From Eledone cirrhosa (Eukaryota): DNA of 64,000 bases. Shown here piece after piece: positions 32,535 to 34,194 of this stretch. The DNA is taken from contig OZ024742.1 in NCBI GenBank assembly GCA_964016885.1, forward strand, positions 20,150,001 through 20,214,000, written 5' to 3'. Both the position numbers and the translations under genes were made by a program. Numbering within the stretch: the first letter of the stretch is position 1; each line of letters starts with the position of its first letter. The notes beneath the pieces are model-generated. The model was not told the DNA's origin and did no database searches. It was given only the letters and a program-made list of their open reading frames with translations.

Positions 32535-32978
32535 CTTTCACTCGTGTAGGACACCTCGGTTATTTTTCATTTTGTAAAAAAAACCTCACTTTCTAATATA
32601 TATATATATATATATATATATATATATATATATATATATATATATATATATATATATATATATATATATATATATATATATTTATCTCTCTCTATATATA
32701 TATTTATCTCTCTCTATATATATATCTATATATATTTATCTATATATATATTTATCTCTCTCTATATATATATCTATATATATTTATCTATATATATATT
32801 TATATATATATTTATCTATATATATATATATATCCGCCTCCGTGGTATTTTTTTCGGGGTTATAAGGGGCTTAGCTCTGTTTCTTGACCGTTGTATCACG
32901 TGACTGTCTATCCCTCCGCCTTTTGGGATTCTTTCTCACGTCATATAGGCGCGTTCTTGAGGCTAGTAAAACGAGGTA

Positions 32979-33068
32979 TCCTCTTGATAAGCCGGCAGAC
33001 CTCGCAAAGGCTCTATATCTTTATGATGTATTGTTTTTGTTTATGCCACGAAACTACGTAGTCGAGGA
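32979..33068 (+). ncRNA. Type I hammerhead, U3-A8 variant
   Basis: TCCTC-TTGATAA-g..GGCA...TGCC.c-GAAA-CTACGTAG-TC-GAGGA. Confidence 0.82.
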
Positions 33069-33572
33069 ATCTAGAAGCAGTTTAGGTATGATACATTTTA
33101 TTACTAATTATATCTAAATGTTTCTTCTCTCTTCATAATGTACTTTTAGCTCTGATACTGGTTCAGTCTAATCCATTCGAATTGGTCTGTCCCAGTTATT
33201 CATAGAGCAACATCGGTTAAGGTTGGCACCATTAACTCAGGGATGGATGTGGACATATTCATGTATATGTGTGTGTCCGCATGTATCTGTGTGTTTCTCA
33301 ATATATTGTTCATAACTCCCTCTGGTCGAGTAAGCTTTGAAGTGTAGTGACTGCTGGAAAGCTGCCATTACTCATACTTCTCGCCCCCTTAACCACCTCT
33401 TCTACGGCTTCGGGATAAATACCCACTCCGCCTCCGTGGTATTTTTTTCGGGGTTATAAGGGGCTTAGCTCTGTTTCTTGACCGTGGTATCTCGTGAATG
33501 TCTCCCCCTCCGCCTTTTGGGATTCTTTCTCACGTCATATAGACGCGTTCTTGAGGCTAGTAAAACGAGGTA

Positions 33573-33662
33573 TCCTCTTGATAAGTCGGCAGACCTCGCA
33601 AAGGCTTTATATCTTTATGATGTATTGTTTTTGTTTATGCCACGAAACTACGTAGTCGAGGA
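33573..33662 (+). ncRNA. Type I hammerhead, U3-A8 variant (second tandem copy)
   Basis: Same architecture 594 bp downstream. Confidence 0.82.
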
Positions 33663-34194
33663 ATCTAGAAGCAGTTTAGGTATGATACATTTTATTACTA
33701 ATTATATCTAAATGTTTCTTCTCTCTTCATAATATATATATATATATATATATATATATATATATATATATATATATATATATATTTCTCTCTCTCTCTC
33801 TATATATATATATATATATATATATATATATATATATATATATATATATATATATATTTATCTATATATATATCTATATATATTTATCTATATATATATA
33901 TGTATATATATATGTATATGTATATATATATATATAGATGTATATATAGATATATATGTATATGTATATATATATATAGATATATATGTATATATAGAGA
34001 GAGATATATATGTATATATGTATATATATATATATGTATATATATATGTATGTATATATATATGTATGTATATATATATATGTATATATGTATGTATATA
34101 TATATATGTATGTATATATATATATGTATGTATATATATATGTATATATATATATGTATATATATGCATGTATATATATATGTATATATATATG

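Follow-up and report, generated by a model that had tools for sequence, protein, structure and literature searches.

Animal retrozyme monomers are circularised by an RtcB-type ligase in vitro, the axolotl monomer at more than 80% against 3% for self-ligation (PMC7229834), and the circles published for animals are mostly of 170-400 nt with the hammerhead unblocked (PMC7229834, Cervera and de la Pena 2020). Retrozyme units are described as 51-972 bp in length and as related to pLTRs, and one of nine predicted Xenopus retrozyme dimers was cleaved in vitro (Li, Clavereau and Pollet 2026, bioRxiv 10.64898/2026.07.22.740005). In these accounts the link between retrozymes and Penelope-like elements (PLEs) is proposed but undemonstrated (PMC7229834; bioRxiv 10.64898/2026.07.22.740005).

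Hammerheads with a U3-A8 core are known from the Cercyon PLEs of Schistosoma (PMC4209133). As described in PMC11167929, one PLE hammerhead required its protein, and in an Anolis PLE reverse transcription starts internally, 111-118 nt into the ORF, with the hammerhead cutting 26 nt past the start codon; this element prefers AT-rich DNA, and uncut RNA is its dominant substrate. Natural U3-A8 hammerheads were also reported by Perreault et al. 2011, who predicted helix I-II pseudoknots in around 40% of hammerheads and drew a 10-bp palindromic dimer helix III for Aedes (PMC3088659), and dimer cleavage of hammerheads is covered in a review (PMC6765202). The U3-A8 core, cleavage as a dimer, the pseudoknot and the tandem retrozyme each have precedents in print.

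Layout of the locus

The window is a 64,000-nt stretch of Eledone cirrhosa DNA (GCA_964016885.1, contig OZ024742.1, positions 20,150,001 to 20,214,000 of the forward strand), and all positions below are those of the window. Its microsatellites, and the mollusc names of relatives of one of its PLE proteins, likewise suggest an animal source. Two direct repeats (32833-33138 and 33427-33732) of 306 bp each are spaced by 594 bp, with 8 of the 306 positions differing between them. The 'spacer' between them is the remainder of a 594-bp unit (GC 42%), and each head-to-tail unit carries a type I hammerhead (two hammerheads in 1.5 units). The features of the locus are:

32833..33732, plus strand: entire insertion of 900 bp, comprising some 1.5 units, head to tail, of a non-coding 594-bp element, flanked by (TA)n-rich tracts
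32833..33138, plus strand: 5'-truncated partial unit (first repeat), its left end inside the unit
33139..33732, plus strand: single full 594-bp unit, closing at the 3' end of the element
32972..33068, plus strand: hammerhead copy 1, type I, U3-A8; core TTGATAA at 32984-32990, GAAA at 33050-33053, cut after 33063
32979-32983/33064-33068, 32991-33049 and 33053-33062, plus strand: helices I, II and III of copy 1
33566..33662, plus strand: hammerhead copy 2, layout as copy 1; core at 33578-33584, GAAA at 33644-33647, cut after 33657
32972-32977 (just 5' of helix I) with 32999-33004 (helix II internal loop), plus strand: possible 6-bp pseudoknot, predicted; same in copy 2
33064..33657, plus strand: predicted cut-to-cut monomer of 594 nt, branched and highly self-paired; hammerhead disrupted in the predicted circle
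33658..33732, plus strand: 3' tail of 75 nt that follows the second cut; it begins with a long hairpin, as observed at the equivalent 33064-33134, and runs into the (TA)n joint

The 3' tail (33658-33732) would be where reverse transcription started. Because both flanks are (TA)n tracts, a target-site duplication is unreadable. A perfect inverted repeat (32457-32534) forms a short palindrome between two (TA)n tracts upstream. Splice-like signals (donor, branch point, pyrimidine tract and acceptor) are found at 33086-33149, just 3' of the cut; the 64-nt intron that they suggest is weakened as a candidate, the acceptor G at 33149 being A in all four aligned runs.

Comparison with known elements

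Like metazoan non-LTR retrozymes as published, the element is non-coding and arranged head to tail, with a single type I hammerhead in each unit, a GC content below 50% and a strongly self-paired monomer; it is without a PPT, PLEs co-occur with it, and its 594 bp fall within the 51-972 bp unit range. Unlike them, it exceeds the 170-400 nt of the circles seen on northern blots, its predicted circle blocks the hammerhead, and 1.5 units are found here, the criterion in bioRxiv 10.64898/2026.07.22.740005 being at least two complete consecutive units. The U3-A8 core and long (59 nt) helix II also differ from these retrozymes and are in the style of PLEs.

The U3-A8 core, short helix I and dimer-suited palindromic helix III are shared with the pLTR hammerheads of PLEs (Cercyon, PMC4209133; Anolis Poseidon PAc, PMC11167929), as are the partial tandem, the 5' truncation, the AT-rich or microsatellite target and a hammerhead close to the 3' end. 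From the cut to that end there are 75 nt here and 85-92 nt in PAc (subtracted from the coordinates in PMC11167929). PLE pLTRs differ in that the present element has no RT or GIY-YIG ORF or remnant, and in that its repeats are 594 bp and not approximately 3 kb apart. Plant LTR retrozymes, as described in PMC7229834 and PMC6765202, resemble the locus in their two hammerhead-bearing repeats of about 300 bp, non-coding interior, circle of about 600 nt and blocked ribozyme. Their hammerheads are however type III and those found here type I, no PPT or 4-bp target-site duplication is seen, and the repeats are not true LTRs. With the hammerheads of Perreault et al. (PMC3088659) the element shares the U3-A8 pair, a predicted pairing of the helix I region with that of helix II and a 10-bp palindromic helix III in the dimer, but the partner strand here would be the internal loop of a long helix II. 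Overall, the element fits the non-LTR retrozyme features that were checked, except that 1.5 rather than two full units lie at this locus; it is neither an autonomous PLE nor a plant-type LTR retrozyme.

Hammerhead ribozymes

Two U3-A8 hammerheads 594 bp apart on the plus strand had been reported in the initial annotation, and this was confirmed: both motifs are found where it placed them (TC at 33062-33063 and 33656-33657, with GUC cut triplets ending at 33063 and 33657). Both have the type I core (N3-UGANN8-A ... GAAA ... UH, with the 3-8 pair and G10.1-C11.1), a helix I of 5 bp, a helix II of 59 nt closed by G10.1-C11.1 and a helix III that is a perfect 10-nt palindrome, and local constrained folds show helices I, II and III able to form around the core. 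The description of both copies as intact does not entirely hold for copy 1, where C32992 (position 10.2) faces A33048 and the second helix II pair is broken; this position is T in copy 2 (U10.2-A11.2 paired) and in aligned relatives.

Of 20000 sequences obtained from the 594-nt unit by dinucleotide shuffling, 3 matched a strict type I descriptor; with a perfect palindromic helix III as a further requirement, 0 of 20000 did. Core positions are unchanged among 40 variant rows (of 190) comparing relatives with the unit. The Rfam hammerhead models detected neither copy, at the gathering score or at E up to 10, and their gathering score was reached by none of the window's other hammerheads; on the element Rfam gave just sub-threshold miRNA hairpin matches. 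With a loose descriptor, 14 hammerhead-like motifs were found in the window, the two studied here included. Helix III is fully or nearly palindromic in all of the 12 that were measured, and in 11 of these 12 a (TA)n or (TC)n run follows at a distance of 43-153 nt (75 nt for copy 2); after copy 1, the exception, comes the remainder of its unit.

Only in the dimer does helix III form a stable duplex (-12.9 kcal/mol between two copies versus +1.5 as a hairpin). Within the full 899-nt transcript the nested double hammerhead, whose halves have the unit as a loop between them, is 17.7 kcal/mol less stable than the minimum-energy fold and two monomeric folds are 24.4 kcal/mol less stable, the former being better by 6.7 kcal/mol; single monomeric folds cost 16.0 and 11.3 kcal/mol. 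In a short local context the active fold costs just 4.6 and 2.4 kcal/mol, but in the full transcript helices I and III have a pair probability of 0.0 in both copies, under an energy model that holds neither pseudoknots nor proteins. The palindromic helix III and these energies make cutting as a double hammerhead likelier than cutting as two monomers in the model, although this route is disfavoured at equilibrium and would need co-transcriptional folding, a protein or tertiary contacts. Dimeric PLE hammerheads have reportedly been described by Lunse et al.

One candidate tertiary contact that could aid the active fold is the predicted pseudoknot 32972-32977/32999-33004, with a duplex energy of -7.8 kcal/mol. 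Random 12-mers match its length in 0.4% of trials, the windows having been chosen after the pseudoknot was seen, and its end pair becomes U.G in relatives. The cut geometry fits the release of G33064-C33657, in line with the earlier proposal that read-through transcription would free a 594-nt RNA able to circularise; against that proposal, helix II of copy 1 is weak and no promoter was identified. For the family, a 594-nt product is plausible; at the present locus, which is decayed, its formation may be inefficient.

Folding of the unit

As a circle the 594-nt monomer is predicted to fold at -176.2 kcal/mol, compared with -138.5 +/- 5.3 for 60 shuffles (z -7.1; value reached by 0 of 60). The linear monomer has a z-score of -6.8 on the plus (ribozyme) strand versus -1.6 on the minus strand. 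Three of 43 control tiles (microsatellite-free, plus strand, 10 shuffles each) also reach such values (z -7.3 to -10.4), and folding of this strength is therefore not peculiar to the element; all three are inside the LINE region 14851-17820, while PLE coding tiles are mostly within about 2.5 of zero. LINE copies (RT, zf-RVT) at 12413-19008 show unusually strong folding of the plus strand, with z down to -10.4. Two 594-nt tiles from the 3' region of the neighbouring PLE gave z of -1.4 and -1.2. Predicted helices of the unit connect the repeat with the spacer (for example, 33396-33423 with 33438-33463).

Substitutions in relatives were compared with the predicted pairs using 39 of the 190 variant rows (the 32992 row was left out), reduced to 36 distinct changes. 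Ten keep a predicted pair, five break one and 21 are unpaired or ambiguous. The five broken pairs compare with 11.6 +/- 2.3 expected for random placement (P 0.004). No clear two-sided covariation was seen in the 39 rows; the changes are wobble-compatible. On these predictions the unit looks like a structured RNA.

Coding content and transcription signals

Translated in six frames with X for each stop, the monomer gave no Pfam family in any frame. With a profile built from 120 PLE proteins, the best score on the element was -3.5 bits, compared with 33.5, 13.6 and 0.5 bits on three PLE fragments used as positive controls; the profile derives from relatives of one PLE in the window and covers distant clades less well. 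tblastn with 13 ORFs of the window gave no match on the element better than E 0.06. Neither Pfam nor the PLE profile thus gave an RT or endonuclease trace, bearing out the earlier statement that no RT-like ORF lies between the copies, and with tblastn included, the RT and GIY-YIG ORF of an autonomous PLE was not found in the element. Relatives carry indels of 1-3 nt in the interior of the unit. A GIY-YIG-like ending (..PLN) spotted by eye near 33386-33393 was rejected, as relatives change 33386, 33387 and 33391 and the PLE profile gives it no score. The sequence indicates that the element is non-coding; a very distant coding remnant is conceivable, since the profile covers one PLE group best.

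No Pol III A box or B box, AATAAA, TATA, tRNA or purine tract of at least 10 was found in the element, and no promoter was identified; a PBS was probed by a single motif. Nine runs of four or more T interrupt the element, which together with the lack of A and B boxes argues against Pol III and makes Pol II probable.

Relatives in sequencing runs and databases

The family survey comprised the four of 22 listed runs that were aligned: X1 and X2 (one sample), X5 and X20 (raw reads). Fifteen further listed runs, with shares of 0.04-0.10, were left out of the family evidence, and no RNA run was among the matches listed. On the searched stretch lay 1413 contigs of X1, 1373 of X2 and 5 of X5, together with 3543 reads of X20, a noisy run in which 3230 of the 3543 reads lie partly on the stretch. 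X1 and X2 have depth in 27 of the 30 bins of the stretch, with summed word depths of 10^4 to 10^5 and the longest single records approximately 7-25 deep. The bin with the repeat/spacer joint has the peak summed word depth (428,884 in X1 and 404,608 in X2), which is not a copy number. These depths point to an abundant repeat. Relatives from three of the four runs, the exception being X5, span the entire unit at high depth.

Contigs of X1 and X2 (records 3 and 12) continue across 33427, the equivalent of the left end of the insertion, which shows this end to be a truncation and no boundary of the family. Five contigs of X1 leave the stretch at 33142 into (TA)n, 4 nt off the equivalent of the 3' end of the insertion. 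In X5, which carries another organism label, a 621-nt contig (record 17) aligned at 33024-33643 across the joint with 58 other letters and 9 gaps. Including its 4 unaligned first letters, it is one unit plus 30 nt in length. The X5 contigs are presumably a 31-mer assembly, and a length of one unit plus 30 nt would be as expected of a closed loop in the graph of such an assembly; the contig would equally be given by a circle, a tandem array or a clipped 1.5-mer. It is about 10% divergent, compared with 2.6% between the copies in the window, and so represents a different insertion, with the joint inherited at the level of the family. The pair of hammerheads had been put forward as a ready-made excision cassette; with the unit recurring in these runs, the locus is not stand-alone but about 1.5 units of a repeated mobile element.

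Pattern scans of metagenomes and of viral contigs gave 0 matches each. One metagenome match (L001) shares only a 14-nt seed, without helix I, and was rejected as chance; one genome match (L002) shares only an 18-nt seed, within DNA of 70% GC, and was also rejected. Elsewhere in the 64-kb window there was no match to the repeat and no autonomous partner with the same repeat.

Other elements of the window

The window is dense in retroelements: a Pfam search covering 148 of its 157 stop-to-stop ORFs identified RTs of LINE type together with frames carrying GIY-YIG, alone or with an RT. The latter frames, tied by tblastn to further PLE pieces, are:

21496-23175: GIY-YIG or RT-GIY-YIG frame
30283-30792: GIY-YIG or RT-GIY-YIG frame
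57252-59232: GIY-YIG or RT-GIY-YIG frame

That at 21496-23175 (minus strand) is an open RT-GIY-YIG PLE frame of 560 aa, 57-65% identical to its closest relatives, several of them bivalve-named. It is a candidate for the type of mobilising partner; no repeat shared between it and the element was found in the window. A PLE with large inverted repeats lies at 25311-32174 and 60163-60717, with GIY-YIG at 27145-27741 (minus) and 30283-30792 (plus) and hammerheads at 25663 (minus), 32085 (plus) and 60365 (plus). Speculatively, the plus-strand end of this PLE, approximately 660 bp upstream of the studied element, might supply read-through.

Further hammerheads and hammerhead-like motifs lie elsewhere in the window. 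At 843-1543 two short U3-A8 hammerheads (1046, minus; 1389, plus) form an inverted pair; their helix III is a palindrome of 12 nt, and they represent another PLE-end family. Four C3-G8 hammerheads of one family form inverted pairs at 24851-25227, 53111-53421 and 55457-55688; their 3' ends are 43-53 or 133-135 nt past the cut, like an optional PLE 'tail'. An A3-U8 hammerhead-like motif (53843, plus; 55035, minus) is found in 100% identical inverted arms around a GIY-YIG-like fragment; its helix II is poorly formed and it may be no ribozyme.

A second non-coding element, laid out like the first (39566-40118, plus strand), lies between (TA)n tracts and has a 483-bp period, with one C3-G8 hammerhead at 39968 whose helix II is 55 nt. 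Its 3' end is 74 nt past the cut, while at the 5' end it begins just 4 nt after the place of the equivalent cut, as would be expected of a template starting at a ribozyme cut. It folds weakly (z -2.5), and its hammerhead has a possible 6-bp pseudoknot of other sequence in the same place, which is weak (-2.3 kcal/mol). Homology of the 594-bp unit with this 483-bp unit is marginal at the sequence level: in gapped comparisons 3 and 6 of 500 shuffles reach the scores and 1 of 534 tiles exceeds them, and in ungapped comparisons 39-47 of 1000 shuffles reach two of the scores and 627 of 1000 a third, with at least 8 of 534 tiles higher. A two-part motif (7 and 9 identical letters, 17 apart) at 33324-33356 and 39764-39796 is, within the window, confined to these two elements. 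It is a statistically marginal candidate for a promoter or protein-binding signal.

Origin and mobilisation of the element

In our judgement the locus probably represents a retroelement of the non-LTR retrozyme type, non-autonomous and derived from Penelope, with a unit of 594 nt; the copy here is partly decayed. This is supported by the joint at family level, the strand-specific folding, the few broken pairs and the PLE ORFs in the window. Against it are the cost of the active folds (11.3-24.4 kcal/mol), the mismatch in copy 1 and the finding that, among the aligned records, X5 record 17 alone bridges the joint by at least 31 letters on both sides. In the proposed mechanism, a Pol II read-through or internally promoted transcript would span both hammerheads, and the two palindromic helix III strands would pair to form a double hammerhead cutting after 33063 and 33657, probably with help from protein. 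G33064-C33657 would be released, and the 594-nt monomer closed by a host RtcB-type ligase. The RT and GIY-YIG endonuclease of an autonomous Penelope-like element would nick (TA)n DNA, and target-primed reverse transcription would start internally about 75 nt past the cut; copying of the circle, or of an uncut multimer, would then continue beyond the length of one unit, the outcome being a 1.5-unit, 5'-truncated insertion. On a linear monomer this start would give just 75 nt of cDNA. For an insertion of 900 bp the template would have had to be circular or else an uncut multimer, and the locus is equally compatible with either.

It is unlikely that the insertion is instead a 5'-truncated partial tandem of an autonomous PLE which kept just its non-coding pLTR/UTR, the 594-nt unit having no independent existence. 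As a rule, PLEs insert as partial tandems with a truncated 5' end and favour microsatellites (PMC8557442), and in one PLE of the window approximately 1.3 kb separate the GIY-YIG stop (30795) from the hammerhead (32085), so the absence of ORF sequence is compatible with such a truncation. However, the joint of a random truncation should be private, and here it recurs at about 90% identity in X5 record 17 and shows no drop in depth in X1 or X2; the predicted helices also tie repeat to spacer (33396-33423/33438-33463), and the 3' tiles of the neighbouring PLE fold weakly (z -1.4 and -1.2). Spread of the repeat at the DNA level (satellite-like duplication or unequal exchange), in which the hammerheads would be carried along silently and no RNA of 594 nt produced, would accord with no promoter element having been found, the unfavourable active fold, the eight of nine tested Xenopus dimers that were uncleaved (bioRxiv 10.64898/2026.07.22.740005) and record 17, which a tandem DNA array explains equally well. 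We hold it to be quite unlikely, given that a single 1.5-mer stands alone in (TA)n and has a defined 3' end, seen again in X1, that folding is strand-specific and that substitutions avoid the breakage of pairs.

The arrangement of direct repeat, unique sequence and direct repeat resembles that of an LTR-type element, either a plant-like LTR retrozyme or TRIM with two 306-bp LTRs and a 288-bp interior; this, or a host-domesticated excision cassette, is very unlikely, as the hammerheads are type I and not type III, no purine tract of at least 10 was found, no short target-site duplication is visible and contigs pass the equivalent of 33427, where the family would have to end. That the hammerhead motif is a chance match within an ordinary duplicated repeat would agree with the silence of the Rfam hammerhead models, but the shuffles (3 of 20000 with any match, 0 of 20000 with the palindrome) and the absence of core positions from the 40 of 190 variant rows leave this with a negligible probability.

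Significance

As a new family of a known class the element adds little beyond annotation, and the retrozyme family lists of bioRxiv 10.64898/2026.07.22.740005 may already include it. Its worth is as a test object: a 900-bp construct would hold both ribozymes and both natural ends, and could address double-hammerhead cutting across 594 nt, pseudoknot rescue of a U3-A8 core and the start of a PLE RT about 75 nt past the cut on a circle. Starting from the retrozyme reading preferred here, a wider proposal joins large (480-600 nt) animal retrozyme circles, PLE-style hammerheads stabilised by pseudoknots, a fixed RT start about 75 nt past the cut and PLE rolling-circle copying into (TA)n, with 39566-40118 as a distant second member. 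We put this forward tentatively and consider it rather doubtful as a whole. If it is true, the end-points of both elements would provide, on a question left open in the literature cited here, a direct footprint of animal retrozyme mobilisation.
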